Shown here: positions 270 through 62,006 of the stretch, one piece after another | How positions within the stretch are numbered: the first letter of the stretch is position 1 | Layout of the letters: each line of letters opens with the position of its first letter | Assembly (NCBI GenBank): GCA_035221665.1 | Contig: CM069135.1 | Location: 23,064,001-23,128,000 of the forward strand | Reading direction: 5' to 3' | Source: Okamejei kenojei | Lineage: Eukaryota | Length of the DNA stretch: 64,000 nucleotides | The notes under the pieces: model-generated | The model's input: only the letters and a program-made list of their open reading frames with translations | What the model was told of the DNA's origin: nothing | Databases searched by the model: none | Position numbers and translations under genes: made by a program

Positions 270-427
270 AGGAACAAGAGGAGTCGGCCTGCAACTTGTT
301 CATCTCCGAGCTGCGGAACATTCGCCTGCGGGTGGAGAACTGTGAGAAGCGGCTGATCCGTCAGATCCGGACCCCGCTCGAGCGAGACGATCTGCAGGAA
401 AGCGTGCAGAGAATCTCCGAGCAAGAG
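270..427 (+). CDS. DST: Plakin-domain exon ([53 protein letters not shown])
   Basis: acag|AG acceptor, GAG|gtcagt donor; overlaps ORF 296..493. Confidence 0.9.
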
Positions 428-1062
428 GTCAGTGTGAGGAGATCTCGCATAATCCGACGTTTGGTAACCCACAGCTGGATAGCGCTAGATTAATACCTTA
501 AAAAAAAACTTTATGGAGTTGCTGTTTGATAATTTTACTCTTAAAGTTTCACACAATGTTAAAGTGACTTTATCCTTAGTCACTCTAGATACTGGCCTCA
601 CACTTCAAGGCAGCATTTGTTGTCCATTCCAAAGTAATTTGACAGGAGAGCTTATTAAGGAGAATTTAAGAGGTTCTGATTCGCTAGGGGAAGGAAGGCA
701 GATTTTCTATCCCAAAGATATATTTGTAAATCAACTGGGCTTTTACAATGATCCACCATTGAAAGGGTCTCAACCCGAAACATCACCTACTCCTTCTCTC
801 CAGAGATGCTGCCTGACCCACTGAGTTACTCCAGCGTTTTGTGTCTATCTTCGCTATTAGCACTTCTTGCAGATTCCAGCAAATAGTAATAATAATAATT
901 TCCATGTTTTAATTACAAAGTTCTAACTCCAATCCATGCCCAATGGGATTTGTGGTTGCGATTTGTAGGTAAGTAACCCAGCACTGTAAATACTCAGTCA
1001 CTGCACAGGACTGGATAGAGTTTAGAGTCAGTGCATCTGTAATAGTCAGCCTGAGGATAGAA

Positions 1063-1420
1063 TGAAAGGCCTGGATAGAGTGAATGTGGAGAGGATGTTT
1101 CCACTAGTGGGAGTGTCTAGGACCAGAGGCCATAGCCTTAGAGTAAAAGGACGTACCTTTAGAAAGGAGATGAGGAGGAATTTCTTTAGTCAGAAGATGG
1201 TGAATCTGTGGAATTAATTGCCACAGACACCAGTGGAGGCCAGGTCAATGGATATTTATAAGATGGGGATTGACAGATTCTTGATTAGTACAGGTGTCGG
1301 GCGTTATGGGGCGCAGGAGAATGCGGTTGAGCAGGAAAGATAGATCAGCCACGATTGAGAGATGGAGTAGGCTTGATGGGCCAAATGGCCTAGTTCTGCT
1401 CCTCGAACATATGAACGTAT
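1063..1420 (+). mobile_element. CR1/HER1 LINE 3' fragment
   Basis: Encodes a decayed RT C-terminus (GLDRVNVERMFPLVG.SRTRGH.L); ends in gggccaaatggcct tail. Confidence 0.8.
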
Positions 1421-1452
1421 GACTGATTGCATTTGCATCTTTCTCTCACCAG

Positions 1453-1628
1453 AAGCTGAAGAGTGAACTGGAGGAGCTTATTGCGGACCTGGAGAAAGTA
1501 ACGGAGAAATGCGATAAATTCTTTGGTCAGGCCTCTTCATCTTCAGCTCCGACCCTGCGGACAGAGCTGAGTGTCGTGCTGCAGAATCTCAATCAAGTCC
1601 ACTCGCTCTCCTCTATTTATTTGGATAA
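1453..1628 (+). CDS. DST: Plakin-domain exon (KLKSELEELIADLEKVTEKCDKFFGQASSSSAPTLRTELSVVLQNLNQVHSLSSIYLDK)
   Basis: tcaccag|AAG acceptor, AA|gtaagg donor (phase 2); conserved PTLRxEL motif. Confidence 0.9.
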
Positions 1629-2650
1629 GTAAGGCTTCAAACCTCACAAATGTCATCGTCCTAGACAAGCTGACGGTGCAATAATTTGTACTGCTTTTCA
1701 TTTGGAAATTAATGAGACTTGCAAGCTACCGTCACATTGGTGGACTGGCATTAACTGTACTTTAATTTTGCATCTTTGCAAAAGTCATTGCACAAATAAA
1801 TTAGGTACAAAAAGGGAATTTCCACCCAGTATCCATAATGGCATGGAACCCTATGGAACCCTGGGTCTGAGCCATGAAGCTTTCCATCACAGAGGCAGAG
1901 TGGTTTCTCTCTCTCTGTGCATGCTGGGTGAAGAAGGGTCCATCCATCACAGACAGTCAGTTTGTTCAGGAATGCCCACTGTTGTCCAATGTGCCTTGAG
2001 TTGTAAAGGGCTTAGTATATTAAAAGCTAAGCCTGGTTTATAATGCGTGTGTGATTGTGTTTCCAGAAAATCTTGTACATATTTTCTTGTTGCCCACATT
2101 ATTTTAGCCACTGAATAACTATCCATTTCAGGGGCGTGAAAGTATCTGAGCTATATCTGTCATTATAAATGACATTACGGATTTTGCTGTCGGTTTGCTT
2201 TACTTTGTTTTTGTCTGGAACCGAGCGCGGTGGCTTTAGATTCAGGAGTTGCCTCTGATCAAATTCACAAACAATTGTTGTTGTTGTTTTTGTTTCGTGC
2301 CCCTCTGTTTTTGAGGGGGGGGAGGGCTGGGGGTTGGGAGATAGACTCAACACTGAGGCGAAATAAAAACACAGTTGCTCGATAAACACTCAGCAGATCA
2401 GTCAGCATCTGCGGGAAGAAATACAGAGTTAATGTTTCAAGTCTGAGGCCCTTCTCCACATGTGTGCGGCCACTGTGAATCTACAATAGTCAGCATGAGG
2501 AAGGAAGTGAATGGCTCTCCTTGCACCCTGCGTTCCAGGGAGAACAAAAATGGTGCTGTGCCCTGAGAGGGATGGCCGCATTCTCCCTGCACTAAGTCTC
2601 TGGTCAGGTAACTGTGGGTTCGACATGCACCAAAACATTATCTTTTCACA

Positions 2651-2935
2651 AGGGCGGCACGGTGGCGCAGCGGTAGAGTTGCTGCCTCACAGCACCAGAG
2701 GCCCGGGTTCAATTATGACCACAGGTGCCGTCTGTACGGAGTTTGGACATTCTCCCCGTGACCTGTGTGGGTTTCTTCTGATGCTCCAGTTTCCACCCAC
2801 ACTCCAAAGACGTCATTGGCCTTGTTACAGTTGTAAGTTGTCCCTAGTGTGTGTCGGGTAGTGTTAGCGTGAGGGGAGCGTTGGTCGGCGCGGACTGGGT
2901 GGGCCGAAGGGCCTGTTTCTGCGCTGTATCTCTCA
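2651..2935 (+). mobile_element. HE1-type tRNA-derived V-SINE
   Basis: ggcggcacggtggcgcagcggtag head, conserved ttctccccgtgacc core, gggccgaagggcctgtttc tail shared with CR1/HER1. Confidence 0.8.
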
Positions 2936-3077
2936 TCTAATGGCATTCTGGTTCTGTTGATCAGTGCGACCATAAATGGAGTTTCCCACGACAACGGCAG
3001 GGATACATCTGAACATTACGGAGTGTTGACAACTGTTTTCAGCAGAAGCCTAAAGCGAGCTTTGTTTCCAACCGCAG

Positions 3078-3216
3078 GTTGAAGACTGTCAATTTGATTG
3101 TCAAAAACACTCAAGGAGCAGAGGCTCTTGTTAAGCAATATGAGACCAAACTGGGAGAGGAGGATGCCGTGCCCCCTGACCCAGAGGCCATTCGGTCTCT
3201 GCAGAATACACTGAAG
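3078..3216 (+). CDS. DST: Plakin-domain exon ([46 protein letters not shown])
   Basis: ccgcag|G acceptor completes the phase-2 codon; AAG|gtaatg donor. Confidence 0.9.
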
Positions 3217-3749: not shown

Positions 3750-3943
3750 CAATGGCGCACAGAGGTGGACGAGAAGCGGGAAGTCTTCCATTTGCTGGAA
3801 GACGAGCTGCAGAAAGGCAAGGCTGTCAGCGAAAGGATGCTGAGGACCCACAACGAGCGTGACATGGACATGGATTGGCACAAGGAGAAGGCTGTTCAGT
3901 TGGCTGAGAGATGGGAGAGCATTCGCTCCCAAATTGACAACAG
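3750..3943 (+). CDS. DST: Plakin-domain exon ([65 protein letters not shown])
   Basis: caccag|CAA acceptor, AG|gtcagt donor; ORF 3765..4025. Confidence 0.9.
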
Positions 3944-4061
3944 GTCAGTCCTGGCTATAACTGGTACAGTTGGCTGTGTCTCGTTAAAAAGCTCCCACTC
4001 GTTCAGTGAAATGATGACTGGCTAGTGATTGAAAATCGTAGTGTTCTACAGGATACGACAA

Positions 4062-4967: not shown

Positions 4968-5130
4968 ACTGCATGAGCTCGATGGAATCAGCACGTCCCT
5001 GAGCTGCTACAGAGACTGTAACAAAGACCTCTATCGGTGGATCCAAGAAATGGAAGCCAACCAACAGAAGATGCAAGAACATCAGCCCGAAGATATCCGA
5101 GCCCTCGCAGATGAACTCCATCAACAAAAG
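4968..5130 (+). CDS. DST: Plakin-domain exon (LHELDGISTSLSCYRDCNKDLYRWIQEMEANQQKMQEHQPEDIRALADELHQQK)
   Basis: ctttcag|A acceptor, AAG|gtaacc donor; ORF 4918..5163. Confidence 0.88.
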
Positions 5131-6110: not shown

Positions 6111-6194
6111 ATGTTGGCTTCTGAGGTTGAAATGAAACAGGGGAAAATGGACGAATGTCAGAAGTATTCAGAGGGATACTCCTCTGCTGTAAAG
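6111..6194 (+). CDS. DST: Plakin-domain exon ([28 protein letters not shown])
   Basis: tttgcag|ATG acceptor, AAG|gtaaag donor; 84 nt, in frame. Confidence 0.9.
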
Positions 6195-6670: not shown

Positions 6671-6778
6671 GAATATGAGCTTCAGCTGATGACTTACAAA
6701 GCCATGGTGGACTCCCAGCAGAAATCGCCAGTCAAGCGGCGCCGGATGCAGAGCTCATCAGACATCATTGTACAAGAG
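6671..6778 (+). CDS. DST: Plakin-domain exon containing the basic PVKRRR NLS-like motif ([36 protein letters not shown])
   Basis: tttgcag|GAA acceptor, GAG|gtggcc donor; ORF 6647..6865. Confidence 0.92.
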
Positions 6779-9350: not shown

Positions 9351-9449
9351 TTCATGGACCTGCGCACACGCTACACTGCTCTGGTTACCCTGATGATGCA
9401 ATACGTGAAGTTTGCCAGCGATGCCTTAAAAAGATCAGAGGACGAAGAG
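9351..9449 (+). CDS. DST: Last plakin-domain exon ([33 protein letters not shown]); branch point between e and a/b isoforms
   Basis: ctctgcag|TTC acceptor, GAG|gtaaga donor; [14 protein letters not shown] is the DST/MACF1 signature. Confidence 0.93.
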
Positions 9450-13281: not shown

Positions 13282-15609
13282 AAAAAAAATCCAGCGAATC
13301 CAGTCAACTTAGGGGAACCCAGTCAGCAGCAGTCTCTGATGACCTTGGGAGACTGGAGCTTGGTGAAGATACAAGGTCTGGTGGAGGAGGTGCGCCAGTT
13401 GAAAGAGAAGGAGCATCGTCTGCAGCAGCGGTTGGCGGGCTTGCTGGCGGACTCCGAGAGTGAGCGGACAAAGCATTGGCAAGCGGTGGAAGAAGTGAGG
13501 CTGGAGAAGAGCAAGTCCGACCTTGAGGCAAGTCAGTGGAGGGTGGAGCTGGAAAGGATATTGAGGGAGAAGGCCAACCTGGAGGAGAAGTTGGAGCAGA
13601 TGGAGCGATTGAACCTGGAGGGTCAGGCCGGAGGAAAGCTGCTTATACCGGGGAGAGAGCCTGACTGCATTACTTTGGTGAGGAGCACATGGGAAGGACA
13701 CCTGAAGCAGGAGAATTATCGTCCAGCACAGCAAGGACCCGAGTACTACGATCAGCTGGACCTTGCCGAGGTTGTTGGACTGGAGGGCTCCAGCTCGGAG
13801 ACTGTGCAGCAGGTGGTAAGAATAACACAAATGCTGGACCTGATGCAAGTTCACATCAGAGACCTGCTTCAAGGACCTGAGGATGAGACGGCAATGGTGG
13901 GAAGAGGAGTTCCAGGGAACGCGAGGGGTGGACTGAGAAAAATGGTCCATGAGCTGAGCCAGGTTAATGACCAAACTCGAAAGGACTTGAAGGACTTGCT
14001 GTTGGAAATGAGGGGTCTCATGCAGAAGGTGAACCAAGTCGAGCTTGGTGCTTCCGAGCAGCTGACGCAGTTGGGGGCTGTAGGCCTTCAGCTTGAGAAA
14101 GCCCAGGCGGAGAGGGAACTACTGCTCAAGAAAGAGGAGGATTATCGGCAGAAGGTGACCCTGTTAGAGGATGAGCTGAAGGACGGCCAACGGCAAAGGG
14201 AAGAATACAGGGCAAGTGTCGAGCAACTATCTCGGGACTGTGCCACTGCCCGATTGCGGGCTCAGAGTTTGGAAAAGGAGGTGGAGGCTCTTCGCTTTGA
14301 CCGGGATCTTGCTGTGCAGCGCACATTGACCTACAACACCACAGTCAGCAACTTGAAGGAGAAGCTGGAGACGGCTGAGGGAGAGAAGAGATGTGCAGAA
14401 AAAGAGTTGGCAGCGAAGGTCATGGAGTTGGAGGACAAGTTGGCCAAAAGCCAACGGGTGTCGAAGGAGATGGAGATCAAGTTGGATGAGGTCAACCAGG
14501 CTTGGAGTCGCGCTGAAGATGTTTCAACGATCTTAAGGACTGACGCCAGTCTTCTTCAGAACTCGAGGGCACTGGCAGAGGAGAGTATGCAGTTGCAGCA
14601 AAAGGAAATCTGCGGTTTAATAGAGAGATTGAAGGGCATGCAGGTGGTTGTAGAAGAGAGGGAGAAGAGGGAGTTTGATTCTCAGGTGATGGTCAGGAAC
14701 CTGGAAGATGACTTACTGCACGAGAAACGCATGGCAGCAGAACTGAAGCAGCAGGTTGACAAGTTGGTGTTGGCCAACCTGAGAGCGGACACGGTTGTGG
14801 TCAGCATGCAGAGTGAGCGGGACTCTTTGGAGCTGGCGAGAAAGGTTGCGGAGGAGAGGGGCGACGCCGAGAGAGCGCAGGCTGACTGCCTGCGAGAGCA
14901 GTTGGAGAAGGTGCAGGAGCAGTTATTCCGGGGAGTGAAGCAGGACCAAGAGCAAGAGGTCATGATTTGGAAACTGCAGGAGGAAGTGGAGCAAGGGCGG
15001 CAGGCGGTGGCTAGCCTGAAGCGCCAGCTGGCAGAGTCCGCCGAGGCGAAGCTGGCAGCAGCACATAGTGCGAGTGACCTCCAGAAGAAGCTGTCCACTC
15101 TTACACTGGAGAGAGAAGCCCTGACAAAGGTCATAAACAAGCAACAATATCTGATGCAAGAATTCGGCATCAAACTGACGCACGCCCAGCAGGAGCTGGA
15201 GAAAGACGCTGCCCAGTCTTGGGGTAACTCTGTTAAAGCCATATGGGCTGGATTCGGCCAAGATAATGGTATGGCGGAAGATTTAATGTTGCAAGCGAGC
15301 GATAGCAAACATCACCTGGGGCGATACAGAGCGTGGGACAGAAAAAGAGTGGTCGGGGAGCATCGCCCCTGGAGTCGGAGCACTTCCTCACTGACTGGTT
15401 ATGAGGGTCAGTACACGGAGTGTGAGCAGCAGAGCTGGAAACCAGTGCTGGCTGCTCAGCATGCGGCGGGGCAGACCGAGTCCACAATCGTGCAGCGGTC
15501 AACAGGGTTGGTGGAAGCACAGCATCTTCACGGTCTAAATGAATTGCAGAGACCGAGGCTGCCCTCAATAACCGAGGAGCCCAAACAAAACACGGATCAG
15601 GTGCCCAAG
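13282..15609 (+). CDS. DST: BPAG1e-type coiled-coil rod exon (alternative, about 776 codons)
   Basis: tgtgttag|AAA acceptor is phase 0 and in frame with ORF 13339..15714. The protein is E/K/Q/L heptad-rich, and EASQWRVELERILREK resembles BPAG1e EAKQYRRELETIVREK. Donor AAG|gtacat at 15609; an alternative in-phase CAG|gtgccc lies at 15600. Confidence 0.78.
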
Positions 15610-16876
15610 GTACATCTCCATCCGTGGGGAGATCTCAGCTTGCTTGGGAGTCTTTGGGTGAACTACTCGCTTGGCTTAATAGTGGACCAGATGATAAGAA
15701 GGGCAGGCCTTTAAACCAAGGCGTCAAGTCCATGATGAGTAGATGAGACTACCTGTTGAGTATAAGCAACCTGAAAAACAGAGCTCCACTCATAATTTGG
15801 TTTAATTCTCTGACTATATATTTTGATCCCAGCATAGATTTCAGTTTTGGAATTGTAGCGCAAACATTTTTGTTTATCAGTTACGAGTGGTCCAGCACAT
15901 CGAATTAATTTAGGTTCCTACACATTTTTGAGAAGTTCAGTCTCCCGAATCTCTTGACAATTTTCATCTCCTGTTCACCTTTCATTTGCATTTGCACTGT
16001 AACAGTGTCGCAGAAAGCTGGATCATTTGTCTTTATAAATGCATCTCCCCTGCCCCCATTGCATCCTCACCCTTGTAGAGTTGGAATTATTCTCAAGGCT
16101 CTCGTCCTGAACGTTGTGGTAATAGCTGGCTCCCTTTCACATCTGCGTCATTTCCTACATGTGAAGCAAGCAAAGATGGGCTCCCGTTCTCTGTTTTATG
16201 TTCCCGGTACGTTATCAGTGGCACATTAGAGCTGCAACCTCACAGCTTTGGACATCCAGGTTTGATGCTGATCTTGTTTGCTGTCGGTGTGCAGTTTGCA
16301 TGTTCTCACTGTGACCTGGAGGGTTTTCTCTGAAAGATAAAAGCATTGGGAGGTTAATTGGCTACCTTAAATTGCTCCTAAATATAAAATCTGTGGGGAG
16401 ATGATTGGGGGAATGGAAAAAAAAATGGGATTAACGTTGGATTTAGTGTAAATGTGCAGCTGGTTAACACTAACTTGGTGGGCTCCAGGGCCTTGTTGTA
16501 TCTCTCTATGACCATATACTTGCATCAATACGCTGGTGTTGCTGATATTGGTGTGATTATATCTTGTCCTCTGTGTATTTTTTCACCCGCTTTCCTCAAA
16601 TCAAGTCCCGCTCTCCAGCCTTTACAAGACCTCCACACCCCCTTCCACGATCTTCCCTTCCATGTTGTCCACAGCCATCGCTAATCCCCCTTCTCGCCTG
16701 GTAAGAACGCACAGGGTAGAAAGTCTTTTGGGTTCATGGGAAAATAAACTGTCGACTCTTTGACTTTGGAATCCAAGAAAAGAAAAATATTGGAAACACA
16801 GCAAGTTGGATTTGTTGGTGATTAGCAGGAGGCTGTTACCATGGTCTGGTGAAAGATATATATCTTGGGGCACACT

Positions 16877-17078
16877 ATAGACAACAGGTGCAGGAGTAGG
16901 CCATTTGGCCCTTCGAGCCAGCACCGCCATTCAATGTGATCATGGCTGATCATCCCCAATCAGTACCCCGTTCCTGCCTTCTCCCCATATCCCCTGACTC
17001 CGCTATTTTTAAGAGCCCTATCTAGCTCTCTCTTGAAAGCATCCAGAAAAACTGCCTCCACCGCCCTCTGAGGCAGAG
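16877..17078 (-). mobile_element. CR1 LINE 3' tail
   Basis: ggtgcaggagtaggccatttggcccttcgagcc family tail. Confidence 0.8.
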
Positions 17079-18618
17079 ATACTAAACTCGCTAAACTACT
17101 TGGGAGTTTAGGTAGCCTCAGATTGAGTTACCCCGTGTGGTAACAATTTACAGGGGGAAACGTTTGTGACATCTCGCAGCTTTTCAATTTTGTTATCTTT
17201 TGCTGTTCTTCTTCACCCTGAACTTTACTCTGCTTAGGATGGGCTGTCAATCCAGAAAGAGAATCCATCTTGTGCCACAGCTTCATGCCAACCTCGCCGA
17301 TTCACACACGAGACCCAAGAGAGAGTGAACACTCTGACTCACTCCCACCACTGTTTGCGAACGGCTGCGGGAACACTGTACCTGCCCCATCAGCTAAGTT
17401 GTGGGAACTGGAGCCTGTTTGTGCATCAGAATAGAAACTTGAGGCACAACGGAATGTTGCTTTCCAAATCTGAGTGGGTTTTCTTGAAAAACTCTTCAAT
17501 ATCATCTTGGGTTTTAATCAATGTATAGACACTCCCTCCAGATGCTTACTCAGCATTCAACCCCCCCCCCCCCCCCCAATCATCATGGCAAGCTTCATGC
17601 AAGAGCAAGATGTTTGATGATAGATTATCAGGAACAGGACCCCATGACATATCCTTTATCAATCCTTTGAAGGCATTCTATTCACAACAGCCATTGCCGT
17701 TTGTTTTGAAGCTGTTTCTCAACAAACCGTCTCTGAAGAATACATTTTTATCACCGCTTCCATGGTAAAAAAGTTTCTCCCAAATATGTTTCTCCCATAT
17801 TCTCTGTTGGTTTTGTCCATAATCAACTTAGTTTAACTTCCTAAGATACTTTAATCAATATCATGATAACAAAATTAATTTGCTCAATTTATGCATAATG
17901 CCTGACTGATCATGGGAAGTAGAAAAAAACCCTCAGCGACTGTTGGTGCATATCAGTGTCTTTTGAACATTTCAAAATCCAATGGCGACAAAAAAAATGA
18001 CACTTGAAAAAAACACCGCGCGTAATACGTCATCAGTCACGGCGTGATTTTTCGGTGACCTGATACATCAGTCAATTATGCAGTCGCCGAAAAAAATCGG
18101 CAAGTGGGACAGGCCCTAAACCCCTCCCACATCGTTGACCTGAAGCCAATTGCTCAACATGGGCAATTAACATTGAGCTATTCATTCAGCATGCATGGGA
18201 ATCGACACCAACTGTTTGCTCTGTCACCATGTTAAAACTAATAATTTAACAAATACAATTATTGAAATAGTTTAAACTTTCCCTGAAGAACAAATAAGGA
18301 TAGCTATAGAGAAGGACAAAGCAGAGATAGAGATGTATTCTGGTCCACTCAAAGGACAGTCTGTTTGCTATTTTTTGGGATTTGCCTTTGAGACCCTGCT
18401 TTCTGGTGCTGATCATTGTTGGGCTACATTTCATGGCAAAACTTGCTCTTCAAGAAAACTTTGTTGCACCAGTTTCTTCTGCTTATCTTTATGGACCTTG
18501 GGTTCTGTGAACTTGCCCTGTTCTCCCTCTGCTCTCTCACCTATTTGCTTTCTCTGGGCTCTGGGGCAACTTCAGATATCATTCGACTCCTTATCATGTC
18601 CAATGTTGATTTTCACAG

Positions 18619-20706
18619 ATGGCAAATCTGGAGCCAATCAAATCGCATGGCAAAACGGAAATAAAATCCAAGCGCATAGAGATGCTTTCGTATGGGAAAG
18701 AAAGGTTAAAGCATCACACCAAATGTTTAGCAGCAAAGGAGGCAGATGGTGAATTAAGTAAGAGAGTACAAGATGTGGTTGCATCTTGCACAGGTCGGAC
18801 TGAAGGCAACAGTTGCATTGGTGACATTGTGGGAGCCAGGTTAAGCACGATTAACATATCTCATGGTGCTAAGCTCTCGTCTCTGAACATGTCGTCTAGA
18901 CCACACGCCAAGATGAGCGAGAAGCTGCCAAAGACCCCAAACCTGAACAACAACACAATATTTCCAGCACCGACTGGTGACAGTAGACCCATCAAGATGA
19001 GCACATCTGAGGATGAAGTCTTTCTTTTGAACAATACTTTGGAGCTTCAAGGCTTGCGTCGCGGTGTCACGGTGAAGGAACTGATTGAGGCTGACCTCCT
19101 GAACAAAAATGTTGCAGAGCAGCTTGATAAAGGAATAAAGACAGTCTCACAGGTGCAGATGTCCCTGGGCAAGTATCTGAACCAAGCTAACTCAATTGCT
19201 GGCCTGTACTTGGAATCTAGCAAGCAAAAAATCTCTTTCAATGAAGCAGTGAAGGAAGGGATAATTGAATCATCTGTAGCCCTTGAATTTTTGGAAGCTC
19301 AGGCAGCAACAGGCTTTCTTGTTGACACCCTGTCCCATGGAAAGTACTCGGTTCAGGAGGCAGTTGATAAAGGACTAGTGGCCACAGAGTTCAAGGAGGC
19401 TCTGCTGCAAGCGGAGAAAGCAGTCACGGGTTATTCATATAATGGGAAGACCTTGTCGGTTTTCCAAGCCATGGAGAACAAGCTAGTCACAAGGCAAGTT
19501 GGAACATGGCTCCTCAAAGTTCAGATGGCAACGGGAGGAATCGTTGACCCCGAGCGCAGTGTCAGGTTGCCTCTGGAGACGGCATGCAAGCAAGGTCACC
19601 TGAGCCACGAGGTTGCACGGACCTTGAACAAGACGCTTGGCAAAGTGAGAGGCTTTGAAAATCCCAACACCAAGCAAGGTGTGCATTATGCAGAGTTGAT
19701 GAAGCTGTGTGTGGTGGATTTAGCAGGGAATCATCTGCTCCTCCCTTTTGGAACACGGAGGATTTCTACCCCATCCCCTGACAAGCCTAGCACCATTTCA
19801 GTGGTAGACACAAACACAAAATCAGAGATAACTCTTTATGATGCTTTTCTGAAATATTACATTGAGAAACAGATCTACCTTGAGCGTTCAGAGGTGCAGT
19901 CCCAGTGGAGAGAGACCACTGACAAATCTGAGGGTGGCACCCAGTACTTTCTAACTGACATGAACTCTGGAAGGATGTTCAGCATCGATGATGCTTTAAC
20001 CCAGGGTAAAATCAGCCAAGTAGACCTCAATAAATACCGAGATGGCCGGATCACCGTGACCGAGCTGGCTGACATGTTGACGAGCAGGAGCACCGTGGCC
20101 CCAAATCCCAACAGTCCAATTGCAGGCATTTGGGATCTGAATGAATGCCGGAAGATTTCCATCCTGAAAGCCATGCACCAGAATTTGTTGGATCGGCTGA
20201 CAGCCACCCGGCTGCTTGAAGCGCAGGCGTGTACTGGCGGGATAATTAATCCACCGACCGGGAAGCGGTACTCCATCTCGGATGCTTTCCAGTACGAATT
20301 AATGGACACGGAAATTGCTGCCAGCATTCAAAAATCGCAGCAAGCCTACAGCGGCTTCCAGCAGCCTGGCTCGCAGCTCGCTTTGTCAACCTACGAAGCT
20401 CTGCGGAGGAACCTGGTGGGACGTGACTTAGGCCACCGGTTCCTGGAACTGCAGCACCTGACCGGAGGGCTGGTGGATCCAAACTTGCAGACAAGGATGT
20501 CCTTGGAGGACGCTCGACGCAATGGTCTTGTTGATGACCAGACTGCACGGAGGCTGCAGGATGAAAAGATGCATGCCAGGAACTTGGTTTGTCCAAAAAC
20601 CAAAGAGAAGATCTCCTACAAAGAAGCTTTGGCCAGAGCTGTATTTGACTGCCACACGGGAATGAGATTCCTGGAGGCAGCAGTGCAGTCTGACACTCTG
20701 AAGTAG
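18619..20706 (+). CDS. DST: BPAG1e-type terminal exon: two plakin-repeat domains with linker (intermediate-filament-binding tail), ending in TAG
   Basis: tttcacag|ATG phase-0 acceptor; 695-aa ORF with QGLRRGVTVKEL, SIAGLYLESSKQKISF, FLEAQAATGF, LLEAQACTGGIINP, FDCHTGMRFLE; no GSR tail, as in BPAG1e. Confidence 0.88.
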   Translation: MANLEPIKSHGKTEIKSKRIEMLSYGKERLKHHTKCLAAKEADGELSKRVQDVVASCTGRTEGNSCIGDIVGARLSTINISHGAKLSSLNMSSRPHAKMSEKLPKTPNLNNNTIFPAPTGDSRPIKMSTSEDEVFLLNNTLELQGLRRGVTVKELIEADLLNKNVAEQLDKGIKTVSQVQMSLGKYLNQANSIAGLYLESSKQKISFNEAVKEGIIESSVALEFLEAQAATGFLVDTLSHGKYSVQEAVDKGLVATEFKEALLQAEKAVTGYSYNGKTLSVFQAMENKLVTRQVGTWLLKVQMATGGIVDPERSVRLPLETACKQGHLSHEVARTLNKTLGKVRGFENPNTKQGVHYAELMKLCVVDLAGNHLLLPFGTRRISTPSPDKPSTISVVDTNTKSEITLYDAFLKYYIEKQIYLERSEVQSQWRETTDKSEGGTQYFLTDMNSGRMFSIDDALTQGKISQVDLNKYRDGRITVTELADMLTSRSTVAPNPNSPIAGIWDLNECRKISILKAMHQNLLDRLTATRLLEAQACTGGIINPPTGKRYSISDAFQYELMDTEIAASIQKSQQAYSGFQQPGSQLALSTYEALRRNLVGRDLGHRFLELQHLTGGLVDPNLQTRMSLEDARRNGLVDDQTARRLQDEKMHARNLVCPKTKEKISYKEALARAVFDCHTGMRFLEAAVQSDTLK

Positions 20707-23677: not shown

Positions 23678-23830
23678 AAATCAGTGGAAGAGGCAAAGCA
23701 AGAGCATGTCGAGAAAGTTGGCGAATTGATGAGATGGGTATCTGAGAAGCACAAGAGTTTAGCTGTGAAACAACGTCAATCACCCGCACCTGAACCCAGT
23801 GCAACGGAGAAATCACTTTCCGAGCAGCAG
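23678..23830 (+). CDS. DST: First a/b-isoform exon after the plakin domain (KSVEEAKQEHVEKVGELMRWVS...EKSLSEQQ)
   Basis: ctgctag|AAA acceptor, CAG|gtatgg donor; phase 0, compatible with splicing from 9449. Confidence 0.88.
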
Positions 23831-27372: not shown

Positions 27373-27461
27373 GCACTACATGTGGAACTATCAAGCAAGA
27401 AGGACCAAATTGCTGAAGCTATACACACGACACAGATGTTCTTGGCGAAACACAGTGACAA
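27373..27461 (+). CDS. DST: Exon (ALHVELSSKKDQIAEAIHTTQMFLAKHSDK)
   Basis: ctttcag|GCA acceptor, AA|gttagt donor; FLAKH motif. Confidence 0.88.
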
Positions 27462-37000: not shown

Positions 37001-40000
37001 CAGAATCGCATTGTGACCAGTGAAACCTCACGGTCAAGTCCAATGGAAACTGGTGCTGAATGTCCACACAGCATGACTGGTACTGAGAGTCATGAAAGTG
37101 AGAAGCAGAGGGAAATAATGATTGTAGAAATGTTGGATGATATTGCAGATTTAGAAGTGAGAATGGTGGTGGAAGAACCAGTTGTGATCAGTGACGTATC
37201 ACAGGATGAGAAACCGTATCATTGCACTGAAAATTACAAGGATGGTGCATTGGGAAATGAACGGAATGGATCATTTCATACCGATGTGGGGGAACGTATA
37301 CATCAGCATATAGAGTCCACTTCAGCAGTTGACAATGGTGAGAGTTGGAGGAGCAAGGTAATTGTATGTGTGGAAGGACTGGATGATATTGCAGAGACCC
37401 AGGAAATGCCATGGTTTGACGGGGACTTCACAGGAGGGAAAGAAGTTCAAATACTTAATCCAGAAGTCGAAGATTTTGAAGGTTTGTTTGCACCTTGTGC
37501 AGAAATGTCGGAGGGTGAAATTATCTTTTTAAATGGAGAAGGTCTTAGTTCGGACCGTGATGAGCAGGTCCAGAGCAATGAAAGCTGCAGCCAAGATTTT
37601 GAAGCAGTTGAAGGTCAGGACAAAAGCCAAGGGCAAGTCAGCAGCGGGTCAGTGGAGGACAACCATCAAACATCTGAACTGGATGAATCAATGAGTGATT
37701 TAGCAAATGCAGGTACAACATTGATGGGCACTAGATTAACGATGAGCAGCAAACAGCAAGAAAAGGCAAATGACTGGACAATGCCACTGGCAAATGCTGA
37801 AGACAGTTGTGTCGGAAGAGATTTGTATGACTTGGAAGAGGAGGAGGAAGATGAGAAAGAGGACGGTGGGCAAGTAGCTTCTCTTGAGGCAGTGAAAAAT
37901 GCAGAGCGGGACAGATCCATCTTAATCAAACAACTCCAGTCCGACATTGAAGCAGGTGGAATATTTGACCCTGTCACTGGTCGGAGGTGCAACCTTGATG
38001 CTGCTTTGGAACGAGGATTTCTGGATGAGGATATGGTTGTAGATATTCTGGTTTCACAATTCCAGGATGGAGGAATCACTTCAGAAGAGACTGGTGAAAA
38101 CTTAACTCTTTGCGAGGCAGTAACAAAAGGTCTTCTGCAGAGTCATGTGGCCATCAAAGTGCTAGGCAAGCTGGGTCTGATTGGAGGACTCTACGACAGC
38201 TCCACAGGAGAAATAATGGAAGTGGCTGAAGTTGCAGAACATTTAGTAAACGATGAACTACTGGCCAAGATTCTGCTTTCTGAGAAAGCTGTCTGTGGGA
38301 TAATTCACCCGGAAACGAATAAACTGCACAGCATTAACGATTCAGTAAGACTTGGAATTCTGGACTCTTCCACCGCTCTGCATTTGCTGCAAGGTCAAGT
38401 TGTTTCTGGTGGCATTGTAGACCTTTATCAAGAAGGTAGACTATCAGTGGCCATGGCCTTGGAGCTTTGCCTGGTGGATGAGGGACATGTTGAACAACTG
38501 ATCAAAATTGAAAAGGCTAAAAATGGAGAGCAGGTCGATAAGGTGACCAGACTGAAGGCTCTAAGCTACCAGTTTGAAACACATGGGGTGCTGGATCCAC
38601 AGACTAGGCAACCTTTATCTGTGGTAGACTTGGTCAAGGGAGGGTTTGTGGAAAGGGATGCTGTGCTTAGTGTTCTTCGCAAGCAAGTTGAAGATGGCGG
38701 TATCATTCAGCATAAGTCAGGACTACGCCTCTCTGTAACAAATGCTTTGAGGCATGGTTTAATCAACGAAAACCTAGCCAATGACCTGTTTGAATTAGAA
38801 GTATCATGCCAAAATATTTGCAATTTGCGTTCTGAGAGCTATTTGCTTCCTCAGGAAAGGAATTTAAGCCCATCAGACTTTTCAGTGAAGGTTAAAAGGA
38901 ACATGAAATCAGACCAGTTTTTCACTGAATTTGATGAAGTAGGATCTGATGTTGGTAACTCATTTGATGAAGGCTTGAAAAAAGAAGAACGTTTGTTTGC
39001 AAGACGTGGCTATATTGATTTTAATCATTTGGACACTATTCCTTACTCTGATTTAGTGAAGATAAGTAACATAGATATAGAAACTGGGCAAAGGTACATG
39101 GCAGTTAAACCATTCCAAGAGTCATTGGATGCTGGTAAAGTTGAAGCCTTGTCAAAACTGAAGGCGGCAGATGTAGATCTGACCACTGCTCGCAGTAATC
39201 ATAGAAAGGATTTAAATGATGAAACTTTGATACCCACTAAAGAAGATGAGATCACTGTGCAAGACTTTGCAACAAAGTCTGATCAGAAGCATAGCAGAAA
39301 GCCTCTGGAATCTGATACATCAGTTTCAGGAGATACTTTCCTCAACAATGAGCTTTCAGAGGCTGGTATGGTATCTGCAGAAGATGTATCTATTAATCAG
39401 AGCAGCATTGCATCCAAATCTTCAGGTTCACTTCAAGATAACTTTTTCGTGTATATTCGGGAATGCATGTCAGATTTATTGCCAGAAGTAGAAATATCAG
39501 AATCTACTGATAAAGAAGATATTCCAAAGAGAGAAGAAAAACAGAACGACAGGTGTGGTACTCTAGATGCGGAGACAACTGTGGGAGAAAAATGTGTGGA
39601 AGAGTTGGAGTTGAACAGTACAGCAAGTTCCGCTGGGACTCAGGATCTAATTAGTAATAAAACGAGTGATAAACGGGTTGATGTTGAGAGACTATCGCCT
39701 GATGTGAAGTTAGGCTTATATGAACAACCATCGCTAAATGAGATGCTTACAGACCAATATTCAGGTGCACAAAGTGTTGGTTGTGAAGACGATTCAGAAG
39801 TTCCTGAACAGAGAGGAATCTTGATGATGACTGTGGAGAACGAGCTGAAATCTGCTTGTGTGGAAACACATGAAGCATTGAAGGATGGACCAAGTGGTGA
39901 TGTGCAGAACCCAGTCAACAAACCTAAGGCAAGTGGAAACAACCAAGAAAGAAAGACTGACGAGACATCGGTTAATATTGTGGATGTGAAAACTAAGGGA

Positions 40001-41956
40001 GAGCTTGTGTGCAGGATGGAAGAAACAGAGAACCAAGTGTCCACTGTTTCTGGAGCAAGGGGAGATGAGAGGGATGTGTCAGCCCCTGACTCGCAAATAT
40101 CATCTGCAGAATCTGAAATTCCCTTGTGCCAAGATAGGGTTGAAGGATTGCAAGTCATCGATGCTGGAGATCACAATCTTAGGAAGGCATTGCAAGAAAT
40201 AGAACAAATGTCTTTAGAAATGGAGGGAAAAGGCAGCTCAGTTGCACTGGAGAAAAATGGCATCCATTCAAAGGACACAATTAGTCAAGGTGAAGCTTTG
40301 GAACAGGTTGAAGCTCAAATGGTAGCTGGGGTGAATGATGAAACTGGTGCTAAAAAGGATGCAAATCTCTTCAGTTCAATGGAACAGAATACAGAAATAG
40401 AACATACCGATTTAAAGCCTGCCTCAAATGCAATGGCATTATCTGGTGATGCAAGGAGTGTTGTAAAAAAGATAGATCTCCTGCTTGGTTCTTTGAACCA
40501 AGTATTTAGTAGTCAAGAGGGTACACAAAAGGCTGGAGAAACTCAGCGGGTGCAGCAGCATCTAAGGAGCGAAGGAGATAGGAGTAGTCAAGAATTCACT
40601 GAATCAGATGGCTTGAAAGGTAACAAGTCCACAAGAGTAGCAGACTTACTTGCTGGTTTGAAGCCAGAGATGCTGAGTCCAGAAGTGCAGGATATGTTTT
40701 GTGTTTTATCTGAAGAACAAGATCCCTTAAAAACTCAGGAACTGATCACCAGGCTGAAAGATGAGCTTTCTCACCTTGTTCAACTCGAAGAGCCCGGTTT
40801 GATGGAAGACGAGTTCTTGGATAGGCAAATGAAAGAAGCACTTAATAAAAATATTCCAATGCTCTTCAGCACTGAGGTAGTTCTGCAAAATGTCTCGTGG
40901 CAAACAGTCGAAGAGGGAAAGGATAATGTGAATCAAAAAAATCAAATGAAAGCAAACCGAGGAAGTGCAACTGATGATTCAATAATGCCTTCTGCTTGCA
41001 GTGCTGGTGACTTGGAATCTAAAGAAGGAAGCGCAAAGGCTGGCATTTTTGACAATGCACTGAATGACAGTTGCTTTAATGAAACTATACTACTGAAACA
41101 AGCTGGACAAGGGGATGATTGTGCAATACTGTCTGGCAATATTTTAGATGAAATAGAGTTCTTGGAAGATGCACTGGATAAAGCTGCCTTGGAGGATACA
41201 GCAGACACAATGTGGATTAGTAGAAATAGGTTTGGCGGTGATTTGAAGGAAGGATACCAATTTATGCAGTCTGAACGAAATAGAAGTGGGGATGCAGATG
41301 AGATGAGACAATCTGACTCTTTTAATAAAATGAACCTGCAGGGCAGTAATCAGGAAAACATCTGCAAACTACCACCAGATGGGGTTTGTCTCAGGGACCC
41401 TGAGGATTGCAATGTAAAGGAATGTACGCCGGATGGGCGAAACATCGAAGAAGGCAAAGATGTAGGTTTTCTGATGCAACCTCCTTCATTTAACGGCAAA
41501 GCCAGACTGCACGATGAAGTACAAGAGGAAGACACGATTGACAATGCATCAAGCGATGCCTGCGATGCACACGCAGTGAATGAGAGGGAAGGAAAATCAA
41601 ACAGCCAAAACAATCACAAAGGTACCAGCAAATGTTCATTTGCATTGTTGCATGGTCACCCCAGTGTAGCAGAGCAGCCAGAAGCCACACGGGAGCACGC
41701 ACTCAAAGAGGAGTCTCCAAATTGTTTTTGGATTAATGCGAATAAAGATGAGAAGAAGGAAGTAGAGCAAGCCATTGCAAGCGGACAAAATACGGACAGA
41801 TCCGTGTATGAGGATTTGGTGGCGTGGTCTGATGGAGGACCCAGTGAAACAGAAGGACTGACAACCTGTGGGGAGAAGAGCAGCATTAAAGTTGGACCAC
41901 ATGAAGTCTGCCATGGGCCTGCTGAGAACCACCAGACTGCTGAAGGAGATGGACAG
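34079..41956 (+). CDS. DST: Giant b-isoform exon (7878 nt, 2626 codons): plectin-repeat cluster 1, acidic linker, plectin-repeat cluster 2, acidic low-complexity region
   Basis: ttttcag|ACC acceptor, CAG|gtcagt donor; ORF 33998..41986 is uninterrupted. Repeated LEAQ..GG(I/L)(I/V)DP motifs occur at about 34079-35250 and 37900-39120. Confidence 0.9.
36701..37028 (+). repeat. In-frame tandem duplication within the giant exon
   Basis: SAF..DVMF..VEN.IVLQK.MEE....TTDRGSMKEMRDAGEQNRIVTSET occurs twice. Confidence 0.95.
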
Positions 41957-42014
41957 GTCAGTAATTCTCTAGACTATTGCATCTAATTCTCCAGACTATT
42001 GCATCTATGCTTTA

Positions 42015-43185: not shown

Positions 43186-43335
43186 CCACGTGACATTGCA
43201 CGGCAGTGTTGGCAGCACAGAGAGAAACTTCAAGCTCATTTGACATTGCTCCAAGAAAGGAAAGTTCAACTGGAGAGTCAGCAGACTGTTGACAAGAACC
43301 TGGAAACCCTTCAAGAAGAACTGTGTTATCTGAAA
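43186..43335 (+). CDS. DST: b-isoform spectrin-like exon (PRDIARQCWQHREKLQAHLTLLQ...LCYLK)
   Basis: ttgcag|CCA acceptor, AAA|gtaagt donor; 150 nt. Confidence 0.85.
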
Positions 43336-43971: not shown

Positions 43972-44178
43972 TTACTAAAGAGCGAACTGGAGGAGCCAGT
44001 CACACGCAGCCTGAGAGCAGTGGAGGAACTTCTGGAGAAATGTCACGTGAATGCCGATGAAGCATTCCTGAGGAGCTTGGAAACCGACCGTAAAGATTTA
44101 CAGGCAACTCTGGGGGATATGATGGACGTTTGCTCGCGCAGGACTGAAGCCCTGGTGGGTGCCATTGAAGCAGAGCAG
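43972..44178 (+). CDS. DST: b-isoform exon (LLKSELEEPVTRSLRAVEELLEK...AIEAEQ)
   Basis: ttccccag|TTA acceptor, CAG|gtaggt donor; 207 nt. Confidence 0.82.
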
Positions 44179-45634: not shown

Positions 45635-45784
45635 CTGAAGGTCAGAGCATCATATCAGGAACTCCTGGCCACGCTGGAACGGCTGTCCCGTCAAATCGGA
45701 GAAAATGCGGTCACCCTGGAGGCCCTGCAGGCTGAGACTGCCCGTGACGTGCAAGCTCTCCAACAGCACATACAGCAACACAAG
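45635..45784 (+). CDS. DST: b-isoform exon (LKVRASYQELLATLERLSRQIGENAVTLEALQAETARDVQALQQHIQQHK) with GC donor
   Basis: tcatcatag|CTG acceptor, AAG|gcaagt donor; 150 nt, phase 0; helical spectrin-like sequence. Confidence 0.75.
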
Positions 45785-48524: not shown

Positions 48525-48758
48525 GATTTAGAAGAAGCCTTCATTGATATAAAAACTCAGCTGGAAGGCACTGCATTTGACATCCAGTTCTTTATTTCGG
48601 AACACGCTTTGGATCTGGCTCCCGAGGAGAACAGGAGTCTGCTCAAGCTTTTGAATAAGACCCAGACATCATTTAGAAGTGCGATGGAAGTAATGTCAGC
48701 ACAGATGAGATCTTTGAATCTTAAATTACAAACCAGATTAGAGGAGGATGTCCAGAAG
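48525..48758 (+). CDS. DST: Last b-isoform exon (DLEEAFIDIKTQLEGTAFDIQFFISEHALDL...DVQK)
   Basis: tcggtag|GAT acceptor, AAG|gtttga donor; AFDIQFFISE motif. Confidence 0.9.
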
Positions 48759-50176: not shown

Positions 50177-50329
50177 GCGTTGGAAGAGAAGCAAGAGGAA
50201 TGTAACAAGAGACTGCAGGAGATAAGTGATCGACTGATGGTGACGGAAAACAAAATAATCGGCTGTGACAGTGGGACAGTTTCCAGTGAAGGCTTGGCTA
50301 AGTTGCAACAGCAGCAGGCGGAACATCAG
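50177..50329 (+). CDS. DST: Spectrin-repeat exon where a and b isoforms rejoin (ALEEKQEECNKRLQEISDRLMVTENKIIG...AEHQ)
   Basis: aaacag|GCG acceptor, CAG|gttagt donor. Confidence 0.85.
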
Positions 50330-51585: not shown

Positions 51586-51819
51586 GCCTTTCAAAAGGAA
51601 ATCCAGGCTAATGCAGTCACTTTAGCAAATGTGGTAAGTGCAATAGAAGAGCTTCTGGAGAAGAATGGGGACAAACTTCAACCAGAAGAGAAAGCAGCAA
51701 TGGAAAAAAAGCTGACAGAAGCCAAGCTGAAACTCAGTGCATTGAGTGAGAAGGTAGACACCGACATCAAGAACCTGGACAAAGCTATAACAACTGCTCT
51801 CAAACAGGAAACCGAGAAG
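51586..51819 (+). CDS. DST: Spectrin-repeat exon (AFQKEIQANAVTLANVV...TTALKQETEK)
   Basis: tctcag|GCC acceptor, AAG|gtgctg donor; ORF 51577..51894. Confidence 0.88.
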
Positions 51820-54857: not shown

Positions 54858-55133
54858 GCTGCAGCAGTGAAGCAGTTGAAGGAAAATGACAGCAAAATCC
54901 AAGACCTCTTGGACTGGTTGTCCAATATGGAACAAGAGCCATCAACTGATCAGAAGGGAAAGGGAACGCTGCAGCAGAATGGCAACACGATTACAGTGGA
55001 TGGACTGCAGGTACTGGAGAATGAAGACACGGTCAATGGAAACCTGCCCCGCAACCTAAGTGAGACCACGGGAGAGGAAGAGAAGGAGCTAACAACCGAT
55101 GGAGATCTACATGGTCAATATGAAAAAGCCAAG
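54858..55133 (+). CDS. DST: Spectrin-repeat exon (AAAVKQLKENDSKIQDLLDWLSN...VNGNL...QYEKAK)
   Basis: ttcacag|GCT acceptor, AAG|gttgga donor. Confidence 0.88.
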
Positions 55134-57347: not shown

Positions 57348-57893
57348 CTCCGCCACCAGCAAGTTGTGTCACAGCAGCAGTTTTACATCATATCGACACA
57401 ATCAGTCCAGGACTTCCTGCAGAAACAAGGCTCGAGTATTCCAGCCGCAGAACGAGAGAAGTTGGAGAAGGACTTGACTGAGTTGAAGGTTCAGTACGAG
57501 ACCGCGCTGGGCCAGTCTGAAAGCCGACTGAAGCTGGTTCAAGCCGTTCAGGATGAGCTGAAGACCTTTTCCACGGATTACAATGAATTTGAAAACTGGT
57601 TGCACCAGTCTGAACAGCAGCTGGAGGATCTCCAGTCTGGTGCCAAGGACATGGACGCCTTTGGTGGCAAACTGAAAAGGCAGAAAAGCTTTTCTGAAGA
57701 CGTCATCTCTCACAAAGGGGACTTGAGGTACATTACTATCTCCGGACAAAGAGTCCTCGATGCTGCCAAATCCTGTGGGAAATTGGGTCTGAATAAAGAT
57801 GGCAAACCTCAGGTTGATATGTCTGCAACTTGTACTCGGGTGCAGAGCCAACTGAACATGGCCAGTGACTCTTATAAATCACTGCAATCCAAG
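57348..57893 (+). CDS. DST: Spectrin-repeat exon (LRHQQVVSQQQ...KRQKSFSEDVISHKGDLRYITISGQRVLDAAKSC...LQSK)
   Basis: caaacag|CTC acceptor, AAG|gtaggg donor; ORF 57324..58004. Confidence 0.92.
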
Positions 57894-59959: not shown

Positions 59960-60255
59960 CTGGTGCAGTGGCACAGCACTAGAGTAGCTGCCTTATACCG
60001 CCAGAACCGGGTTTGATCCTGACTACGGGTGCTGTCTGTACGTTCTCCCTGTGACCGCGTGGGTTTTCTCCGGGTGCTCCAGTTTCCTCACACGCTCCAA
60101 AGACGTACAGGTTTGTAGGTTAATTAGGTTCGGTAAGATTGTAAACTTGTCCTTTGTGCGTAGGATAGTGTTTGTGTAGGAGGATTGCTGGTCGGAGTGG
60201 ACTTGGTGTGCCGAAGGGCCAGTTTCCTTTACTGTATCTCTAAAGTCTAGAGTAA
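59960..60255 (+). mobile_element. HE1-type SINE
   Basis: Family head, core and tail. Confidence 0.78.
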
Positions 60256-60998
60256 AATCCAAAGTGGTTCTGTCTGGTCCAATTTGTGGCTGTACATTTG
60301 AGATGGTGCAAGAGAGTCGGAGCAGAAAGTGCCGAAACATAGTTGTGAGGCTGTGCAATTAGTTTCCATGGACTGCTGTTTACGGAGAAAAAGCCAACGT
60401 TAAAGATTAGGCTGAGCAAGGTAGATGAAGGAAAAGCCATTGCAAGGGATGTAAAACACAGTTGGGTGAATATGATTTGAACAAATTGAGCTGAATGGCA
60501 TATTTGCATGCTGGATAGTTATGGAGGCTTGTTTGTTGAGACAAATCTTCATTTCATTCCACCTCTTAGAGCTACTGAATTACTTACATTCACACCCAAC
60601 CAGGTGCAATTTCCCAGTTGTTCTGTTCTCCTCCAACACTTGGCGTGTGTATTATGAGTCCTTTTCCATTGTTGAGCTACTTGTGTGATTTTCGGACAAA
60701 TGACCAATTTCTTATACTGATAATTACTGTTGACTTTTGTTGGACAATACAGGGAGATAAGTTGGAAAATTACATTTTTGACATCACATTAAAGGAAATG
60801 GGCCAAATGCAGGCAAATGGGATGAGCTTCCATGTGATACCTTGGTTGGAACAGACAAGGTGGCCCAAATGGCCCGTTTCCATGCAATTCTGAGCACGAA
60901 AGGAATAACGTTTGTTCAAATGTTTGATTTTTATTCACGATGCTAGTGAGGGCACGCTTGAAAAAAACTCCCATTTACCCATCAAAAACCCTCAAACG

Positions 60999-61273
60999 TG
61001 GGCGGCACAGTGGCGCAGCAGTAGAGTTGCTGCCTTACAATGCCACAGACCCGGGTTGGATCTTGACCACAGAGTTTGTACGTTCTCCCCGTGACCATGT
61101 GGGTTTTCTGCGTGTGGCTTCAATTTCCTCCCACGTTCCAAAGACGTACAGATTTGTAGGTTAATTGGCTTCAGTAAAATTGTTCCCAGTGTAGGATAGA
61201 ACTAGTGTCCGGGTTGATCACTGGTCGGTGCAAACTGCGCTCTGTTTCCGCACTGTATCTCGAAAGTCTAAAG
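60999..61273 (+). mobile_element. HE1-type SINE with the hAT MITE inserted in its tail
   Basis: gggcggcacagtggcgcagc head, family core. Confidence 0.78.
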
Positions 61274-61540
61274 CAAGGGTTCCCAACCTGGGGTAACTTT
61301 ACCCAGATTTGCAGGTTAATTGGCTTCAGTAAAATTGTTCCCAGTTTAGGCAACTTTACCCAGGGGGTAAATTTGTTGCCTCTACATTTGCACATATTTT
61401 TTCTCATCGACTGACTGTGTTTGGTTCTAGTATACCGGTATCTGTTCATCATTACTTGTTCATAAGTAAGTGAAATAACATTGTGATCTGCTATTAATGT
61501 TGCCAAGGGTAAACGGGACGAAAAAGGTTGGGAACCCCTG
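61274..61540. mobile_element. hAT (Charlie-like) MITE
   Basis: TIRs caagggttcccaacct / aggttgggaacccctg; 8-bp TSD gtctaaag / gcctaaag. Confidence 0.75.
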
Positions 61541-61613
61541 GCCTAAAGTAAATTAAAGTCTTGTGTGTTTAGTTCACCTGATTTACGTGATTAACGTTTT
61601 CTCCTTATGACAG

Positions 61614-61790
61614 TGCAATCTGTTGGGTAAAAATCTGAAAGACGTGGTGGAGAAGTATGACCATTACCAGGAGTTGTCAGCCGCGCTTCTACCCTGGCTT
61701 CAAACTGCCGAGGAAGCTGCAGGAACACAGCTGACGGACGCCATTGCAGCAGATCCGAAGAACCTTCAGAAGCAGTTGGAGCAAGCCAAG
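61614..61790 (+). CDS. DST: Spectrin-repeat exon (CNLLGKNLKDVVEKYDHYQ...DPKNLQKQLEQAK)
   Basis: tgacag|TGC acceptor, AAG|gttacc donor. Confidence 0.9.
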
Positions 61791-61882
61791 GTTACCATTC
61801 TATGCATCTTCCAATAAGTTGTTGCGATTTTCCTTTCTCTTGCACCTCACTGTATGAAGTGTCTTTATTCCCCCGTGTGTAG

Positions 61883-62006
61883 GCTCTCCAGGACCAGATA
61901 TCTGGGCATCAACGAGTGGTTGAGAAGCTAAGGAAAGCCGTGGATGTGCTTATGGGTACAGATGGTGATCTCTTGTTGAATCGAGAAGAAATCCAGGATA
62001 ACCTGG
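61883..62006 (+). CDS. DST: Spectrin-repeat exon (ALQDQISGHQRVVEKLRKAVDVL...IQDNL)
   Basis: gtgtag|GCT acceptor after a 92-nt intron; G|gtacgt donor (phase 1). Confidence 0.88.

Follow-up and report, generated by a model that had tools for sequence, protein, structure and literature searches.

A 64,000-nucleotide stretch of the genome of the skate Okamejei kenojei (GCA_035221665.1, CM069135.1, positions 23,064,001 to 23,128,000; locus code G000:C5:23064001-23128000; no N), hereafter the window, holds part of a spectraplakin gene that combines an epithelial, e-type rod and tail cassette with a giant exon carrying two clusters of plectin repeats. This raises the question as to which spectraplakin this gene is, and where the second repeat cluster (cluster 2) comes from. 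A sequence-only reading of the window offered three answers to the first part: an elasmobranch dystonin (DST) with an old architecture, a MACF1 with an undescribed epithelial isoform, or a third ohnolog. Synteny, trees and a count of two loci support the first of these. We consider it very probable that the window is the middle of the DST gene, and that its giant b-type exon carries a second cluster that likely goes back to the common ancestor of DST and MACF1.

The assignment to DST is based on the flanking PRIM2 and ZNF451 genes, on the trees of all segments and on the presence of a separate MACF1 near NDUFS5. PRIM2 (C5:22.46-22.63 Mb) and ZNF451 (22.75 Mb) lie 5' of the window gene, and the order at human 6p12 is given as COL21A1, DST, BEND6, KIAA1586, ZNF451, BAG2, RAB23, PRIM2 in the available text of PMC10685534. 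A second spectraplakin on contig C27 has NDUFS5 on its 5' side, the gene that adjoins MACF1 in human (PMC5053025, available text), and clusters with MACF1-named proteins of whale shark and basking shark; the window gene shows neither property. Locus counts in this genome are lower bounds: a plakin exon query found at least three loci (the window, C27 and a plectin-like gene on contig C2), while a spectrin exon and an EF-hand-region exon each matched at least two, C5 and C27 only. The best GAR matches fall on the same two contigs. In unrooted segment trees the window is placed on the DST side with an ultrafast bootstrap support (UFBoot) of 100 for the plakin domain, for cluster 1 and for the spectrin segment, and with a FastTree support of 1.0 for the tail. 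The closest named relative over cluster 1, among the best 120 of 636 matches, is a Rhinoraja longicauda protein (93%). The two-cluster giant exon is common to MACF1 and hence not diagnostic. Judged from these comparisons, the gene is the ordinary dystonin (DST/BPAG1) of a cartilaginous fish, with a separate MACF1 in the same genome. The sequence-only reading had also listed ten motifs as a mixture of DST-like and MACF1-like signals. Nine of them are present in the spliced model, either exactly or nearly as listed (QIDNRL, which crosses a splice junction, was searched as QIDNR); RHQ..SQQQ has three spacer letters, not two. The "MACF1-like" residues are mostly old states: words resembling DIQFFISEHA and EHVEK also occur in shark, bird and bear DST, and EK.L.EQQ and LE.D.K.LQ, found in MACF1 and in skate or shark DST alike, were altered in amniote DST.

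That a plakin domain, a rod and tail cassette (13282-20706) and a two-cluster giant exon sit in one gene, as first read from the letters, is confirmed by Pfam, by an in-frame exon model and by contig splicing. The plus strand carries three long open reading frames (ORFs; 13282-15711, 18610-20703 and 33974-41983) and many short exons. Among Pfam domains, SR_plectin_7 matches the first exon and Spectrin the segment 57321-58001, and the two later long ORFs match Plectin (tail ORF, E 2.8e-76; giant ORF, E 2.4e-89). Exons were placed by tblastn with named shark and bear dystonins and an Aldrovandia protein, followed by fixing of the splice sites, and the resulting 24-exon model (Table 1) has AG acceptors and GT donors with a single GC donor at 45784. 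An e-type form reads through 1844 aa to one stop. The b-type form (3875 aa) and the a-type form, in which five exons are skipped (1002 aa), are open throughout. Mammals make e-, a- and b-type proteins by alternative choice of 3' exons (available text of PMC3352950 and PMC5979291), and the skate transcript could likewise run, after the last plakin exon, either into the rod and tail exons and stop, or into the giant and spectrin exons. The giant exon and the four phase-0 exons that follow it appear to be the five specific exons of DST-b described for mouse and human (PMC9365387, available text). The CH and earlier plakin exons are located 5' of the window, and the gene runs on past its end, with the GAR domain ~184 kb further; CH-to-GAR exons are colinear in the same gene, partly outside the window, as judged by exon order and not from one full-length transcript.

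Contigs, from coded sequencing runs that are only presumed to be RNA (none is recorded as such, two are flagged "probably DNA", and none has a tissue label), jump introns at the predicted exon boundaries. One study, on a relative that is ~1.6% different from the window, is the source of all these joins. A contig of 8428 nt (runs X1 and X2) covers 34077-41953, both clusters included, and extends over the three exons that follow, and one of 5681 nt (X1) runs from the rod exon directly into the tail exon and on into its 3' flank. Contigs of the tail exon reach 23108 and include an AATAAA (22733) and an ATTAAA (23088), and the match to the relative's contigs stops at the GC donor of the b-type exon at 45784. 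The a-type skipping form is in frame, yet no contig displays the skip, and none of the contigs displays a join of the plakin exons to either cassette.

To describe the distribution of cluster 2, we took the best 120 of the 636 matches and removed 59 epiplakin-like rows (by name, two by low identity), which left 61 rows; rows lacking names were assigned by tree or nearest neighbour, and two rows end too early for scoring. Within this sample, cluster 2 is present in 12/12 MACF1-type rows, in full in 3/3 cartilaginous DST rows, in part (~140-300 profile positions) in all eight scorable ray-finned-like DST rows, and in none of the 36 scorable bird- or mammal-like DST rows. The two-cluster exon of the window recurs in Rhinoraja, Scyliorhinus and Chiloscyllium proteins. 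With a DST-specific profile and filters off, the same 36 rows score at most 0.7 bits (shuffles reach 3.2), as do five full-length DST-b proteins (three dolphin, one pangolin, one other; 0/5); two held-out fish rows score 252-255 bits. A second set of 39 new rows gave no cluster 2 in five tetrapod-like DST rows, including a named rattlesnake dystonin; the 17 scorable ray-finned-like DST rows comprise 8 clear cases, 6 traces (8-17 bits) and 3 absences, 11 of the 14 MACF1-type rows are positive, and 3 DST rows are too short for scoring. That cartilaginous fish retained cluster 2 and the DST of bony vertebrates lost it step by step is a reading well supported by these comparisons. The statement in the sequence-only reading that mammalian dystonin-b lacks the second cluster agrees with the scorable mammal rows, which show no trace of it. 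It had also allowed that the novelty might shrink to a mammalian loss if all segments grouped with DST and non-mammalian dystonin-b contained the cluster; this holds in part, as all segments are DST and ray-finned fish have a partial cluster, but birds and snakes lack it too, so that the loss is not merely mammalian. A separate cluster 2 profile search, limited to proteins of 808-2305 aa, returned 35 giant-exon rows, all nearer MACF1, and 3 weak ones; this range excludes shark DST and the search was not used. A search for full-length relatives above 4674 aa, with an upper limit of 5000 aa, yielded axolotl plectin alone. As a separate observation, nine proteins (P0238-P0241, P0243, P0247, P0251, P0255 and P0257) form a fast-evolving clade of teleost-like DST giant exons in which both clusters have decayed to graded extents; this clade may represent a second teleost dst copy.

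Cluster 2 of the window is 39.6% identical to cluster 2 of the C27 MACF1 (384 columns, E 3e-80), close to the 41.9% found for cluster 1 of the same two genes. In the cluster 2 tree, all MACF1 rows fall on one side (UFBoot 95) and the shark, skate and ray-finned DST rows on the other. The two families also differ at the edges of the cluster: a leading repeat is common to shark, skate and ray-finned DST and missing from MACF1, while MACF1 has a further trailing domain of ~100 aa that DST lacks. The skate cluster shares 72% and 68% identity with two sharks, compared to 32-36% in the spacers; its conservation across sharks equals that of cluster 1, and weaker similarity extends from it to 39133. 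AlphaFold predicts eight hairpin-helix-helix repeats with a confidence (pLDDT) of 84.5, in agreement with the tandem 38-residue repeats of this kind that Pfam and the model both indicate. In a structure search with this model all six matches at E<=0.001 are plakin repeat domains (E 1e-10 to 5e-6), and at that threshold the sequence and fold searches together return desmoplakin, envoplakin and plectin domains only. Basic grooves are described as the mark of filament-binding domains, and A-type domains as having few basic residues, in the available text of PMC4782060. The net charge of cluster 2 is -18 and that of cluster 1 -19, and those of the tail domains are 0 and +3. Because the clusters are acidic overall, unlike the tail domains, we favour by analogy a docking role for cluster 2, one that may be partly redundant with MACF1b.

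The e-cassette has its own distribution among the paralogues. The rod core has a 3.5-residue periodicity that none of 200 shuffles equals; at either end of the exon it is absent, with 16/200 (first part) and 44/200 shuffles (last part) reaching the observed level. The rod matches bird DST rods at 134-135 bits (shuffled sequences reach at most 57), and plectin rods score near their shuffles against it. For the tail, identity is 45-47% with DST tails and 40% with plectin. The plakin splice site after which DST has its rod and tail exons is followed by a rod and a tail exon in the plectin of this genome as well, in identical phase; in MACF1 only ~830 nt of intron occupy that position. A search of the MACF1 locus for a remnant of the cassette gave no rod match, and the tail matched the giant exon only; atlas searches returned only generic coiled-coil matches for the rod, and weak plectin leads. 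Since the cassette is present in two of the three paralogues, the simplest reading, by parsimony, is that MACF1 lost it before the split of sharks and bony fish. The reciprocal loss of modules in bony vertebrates that the sequence-only reading had envisaged thus survives for cluster 2 of DST; its MACF1 half does not, as the MACF1 of this cartilaginous genome already lacks the cassette. An 880-aa extra block in dolphin dystonin models was considered as a new module and rejected, as it matches the e-rod exon.

These results suggest the following history. The gene before the duplication would have held the e-cassette and the two-cluster exon together. MACF1 would then have lost the cassette ahead of the shark/bony-fish split, while cartilaginous DST kept everything; ray-finned DST would have lost the back half of cluster 2, with further loss in some teleost copies, and all of the cluster would be gone from DST by the amniotes. 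Extrapolating from mammalian DST, the e-form would connect hemidesmosome-type junctions with keratin, and cross-linking of actin and microtubules would fall to the a- and b-forms, with the b-form chiefly in muscle. Cluster 2 is predicted to be a folded, acidic protein-docking module that helps to place the giant isoform on organelles or junctions and does not grip intermediate filaments, and in DST it may be partly redundant with the same module in MACF1b. A broader proposal, which we regard as evenly balanced, is that cartilaginous DST is the closest living copy of the founder spectraplakin of jawed vertebrates and the sole keeper, among DST, MACF1 and plectin, of the epithelial cassette plus the two-cluster exon. 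Cluster 2 would then be a distinct, still-selected binding module, trimmed from opposite ends by DST and MACF1 and shed stepwise by DST from ray-finned fish to amniotes, marking the hand-over of a muscle-isoform function to MACF1b.

Several points weigh against this account. When cartilaginous DST and MACF1 cluster 2 are forced into one clade, the tree loses 10.8 log units and is not rejected by the approximately unbiased (AU) test (p = 0.056), which omitted the DST-specific leading repeat. The ancestral status of cluster 2 is a parsimony argument from unrooted trees, and the sample has no identified amphibian, lungfish, coelacanth, gar, chimaera, lamprey or amphioxus row; for want of the first four of these, the final loss can be dated only as "by the amniotes". 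Rows are not independent (there are six bear isoforms, and birds are over-represented), and some fish rows served in training the profile. The six trace-level and three negative ray-finned-like DST rows of the second set count against it as well, as do three of the 14 MACF1-type rows there, two of which are short fragments and one a 4358-aa protein. The TM-scores of the model to solved domains are low (0.28-0.33 by query length and up to 0.42 by target), which leaves packing into globular 4.5-repeat domains like those of desmoplakin or envoplakin putative, and the predicted role is drawn from net charge and analogy; Golgi targeting by MACF1b resides in its first two domains, outside cluster 2 (available text of PMC4914211). 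Finally, the contig support comes from one study with runs guessed to be RNA.

What could explain the data otherwise? The most durable alternative is that the gene is DST but that cluster 2 was copied into it from MACF1 after the duplication, by gene conversion or exon transfer. The AU result just mentioned would permit this, as would a sample without a pre-duplication outgroup; however, a transferred cluster has to be squared with an equal divergence from MACF1 for cluster 2 and cluster 1, with a best tree that separates DST from MACF1, and with a ray-finned DST that has the same cluster including the leading repeat absent from MACF1 (a repeat outside the AU test), and we consider it improbable. 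Even less probable, in our view, is that cluster 2 is ancestral and by now a passive relic with no specific job in the skate protein. Its loss in amniote DST and erosion in teleosts fit such a picture, as do a repeat insertion and a tandem duplication tolerated in other parts of the exon, but a relic would hardly be expected to keep 68-72% identity with sharks next to spacers at 32-36%, a confidently predicted fold and coverage by spliced contigs. An inherited and retained cluster of DST is the reading that we prefer. The remaining two options of the sequence-only reading, a MACF1 with an epithelial cassette and a third DST/MACF1 ohnolog, draw on the MACF1b-like giant exon and a few residues common with MACF1; DST neighbours, a separate MACF1 (C27) and plectin (C2), all trees, and and a count of two loci, itself a lower bound, for the spectrin and EF-hand-region exons exclude the former and, with no third full spectraplakin locus found, the latter, so that both are refuted by synteny and trees unless a more DST-like locus is missing from the assembly, and we give them next to no credence. 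A chimeric DST/MACF1 misassembly, for which we found no supporting evidence, can be dismissed with equal confidence, given 464 kb around the window with no N, colinear CH-to-GAR exons, the same two-cluster exon in the Rhinoraja, Scyliorhinus and Chiloscyllium proteins, and a contig from another organism (8428 nt) that covers both clusters and the next exons.

How does the skate gene compare with known systems? Mammalian dystonin (DST-a, -b and -e) shares the synteny, the order of plakin, rod-tail, giant and spectrin parts, the five in-frame b-type exons and the positions in the segment trees; the skate giant exon adds the second repeat cluster, of which amniote rows show no trace, and the e-rod region of the skate, at about 910 aa, falls short of the 960-1050 aa of bird and fish rows and is only ~20% identical. 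MACF1b, the giant isoform of ACF7, has the homologous two-cluster giant exon, but at another locus, with no e-cassette and with the differences in cluster 2 described above. According to the available text of reviews and preprint 10.1101/122010, MACF1b has five domains or about 20 repeats and dystonin at most two domains or 9-11 repeats per region, and all spectraplakins splice in the internal repeat region. The same sources describe C. elegans vab-10 as a single gene with a BPAG1e/plectin-like end and a spectrin end, so the all-in-one plan with two alternative 3' ends is already known. Drosophila shot has an internal plectin-repeat exon according to the reviews, one of which states that invertebrate repeats are not arranged in 4.5-repeat domains; the comparison with skate cluster 2 is by description only. 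Plectin, whose rod and tail exons likewise follow the plakin splice site used in DST, differs in having its own locus (C2), with no giant two-cluster exon over the 120 kb that follow. Plectin with MACF1CTL has been proposed to be a split copy of a MACF1/spectraplakin gene (available text of PMC8782857); no MACF1CTL was found in the 120 kb behind skate plectin and a genome-wide GAR search had no C2 match, which is not proof of its absence. The DST/MACF1 duplication has been dated before the vertebrate radiation (PMC9145010, available text).

In the literature covered, which largely leaves out subscription journals, we came across no description of a second cluster in the dystonin of fish, although the supplements of PMC8782857, PMC9145010 and preprint 10.1101/122010 could show it. 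The shark proteins are already public and named dystonin in UniRef, so the cluster sits in annotated sequence, even if unremarked. The locus provides a concrete, datable case of one ancestor's modules being divided among DST, MACF1 and plectin, and would explain the smaller number of repeats in dystonin-b, compared to MACF1b, by a loss on the amniote side and not by a gain in MACF1. The natural series of full, half and no cluster 2 could offer a handle on the role of the internal repeat regions, about which little is known according to the available text of a review. No new gene family or mechanism is revealed, and the finding is a modest, specialist one about evolution.

Table 1 Features of the skate DST gene in the window (positions in the window).
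Feature	Positions	Strand	Evidence
Plakin domain, C-terminal half, 8 exons	270-427, 1453-1628, 3078-3216, 3750-3943, 4968-5130, 6111-6194, 6671-6778, 9351-9449	+	exon model, plakin tree
e-type coiled-coil rod exon, 776 aa, phase 0	13282-15609	+	heptad signal, bird DST rod matches, contig join to tail exon
e-type terminal exon: 2 plectin-repeat domains, linker, stop	18619-20706	+	Pfam, contigs
3 exons common to a- and b-type forms	23678-23830, 27373-27461, 33235-33370	+	exon model
Giant b-type exon, 7878 nt, 2626 codons, phase 0	34079-41956	+	ORF, exon model, contigs
Plectin-repeat cluster 1, in all DST-b and MACF1b rows	34079-35233 (about)	+	alignments, trees
54-codon tandem repeat in spacer; second copy 36869-37030	36707-37030	+	contigs, alignment
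Plectin-repeat cluster 2, 8 predicted hairpin-helix-helix repeats	37916-38830 (about)	+	alignment, tree, predicted structure
In-frame 75-nt insertion of common genomic repeat	40508-40582	+	alignments, contigs
4 further phase-0 exons	43186-43335, 43972-44178, 45635-45784 (GC donor), 48525-48758	+	exon model, contigs
6 spectrin-repeat exons	50177-50329, 51586-51819, 54858-55133, 57348-57893, 61614-61790, 61883-62006	+	Pfam, exon model, tree

Two of the features in Table 1 are repeats within the giant exon. The 54-codon repeat is present in two copies here and in Rhinoraja, with one fewer in the relative's contigs. The insertion at 40508-40582 consists of a ~65-nt repeat fragment that adds 25 residues, flanked by a target-site-like duplication (AGTAGTCAA), and its repeat has 55 other matches in the 464 kb around the window; as it is missing from Rhinoraja and from the relative's contigs, the insertion is a recent one.

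Further observations concern other parts of the genome. DST (C5:23214829-23216202) and MACF1 (C27:18000038-17996511) each have a large nested exon, with a common start and 50.6% identity over ~150 aa; the MACF1 one we take to be KIAA0754. An extra exon conserved between DST and MACF1 is mentioned in the available text of a review and is probably the same. The MACF1 giant ORF (C27:18057443-18056688, minus strand) meets a stop after 1490 codons and is followed by a 208-codon ORF in another frame; possible causes are a splice inside it, decay of its 3' part and misassembly. Further upstream of the window, at C5:22995873-22996790, lies an ORF resembling an alternative first exon, with an MG start and nearby cysteines, and presumably similar to the human a3/b3 motif. 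It would fit the myristoylated start of dystonin-a3/b3 that is named in the available text of a review. Finally, the plectin tail ORF (C2:364778-379921), 5048 codons long, contains an extended series of nearly identical repeat domains at a spacing of ~984 nt. Mammalian plectin has six, and the large excess here represents either a real expansion or an assembly artefact.

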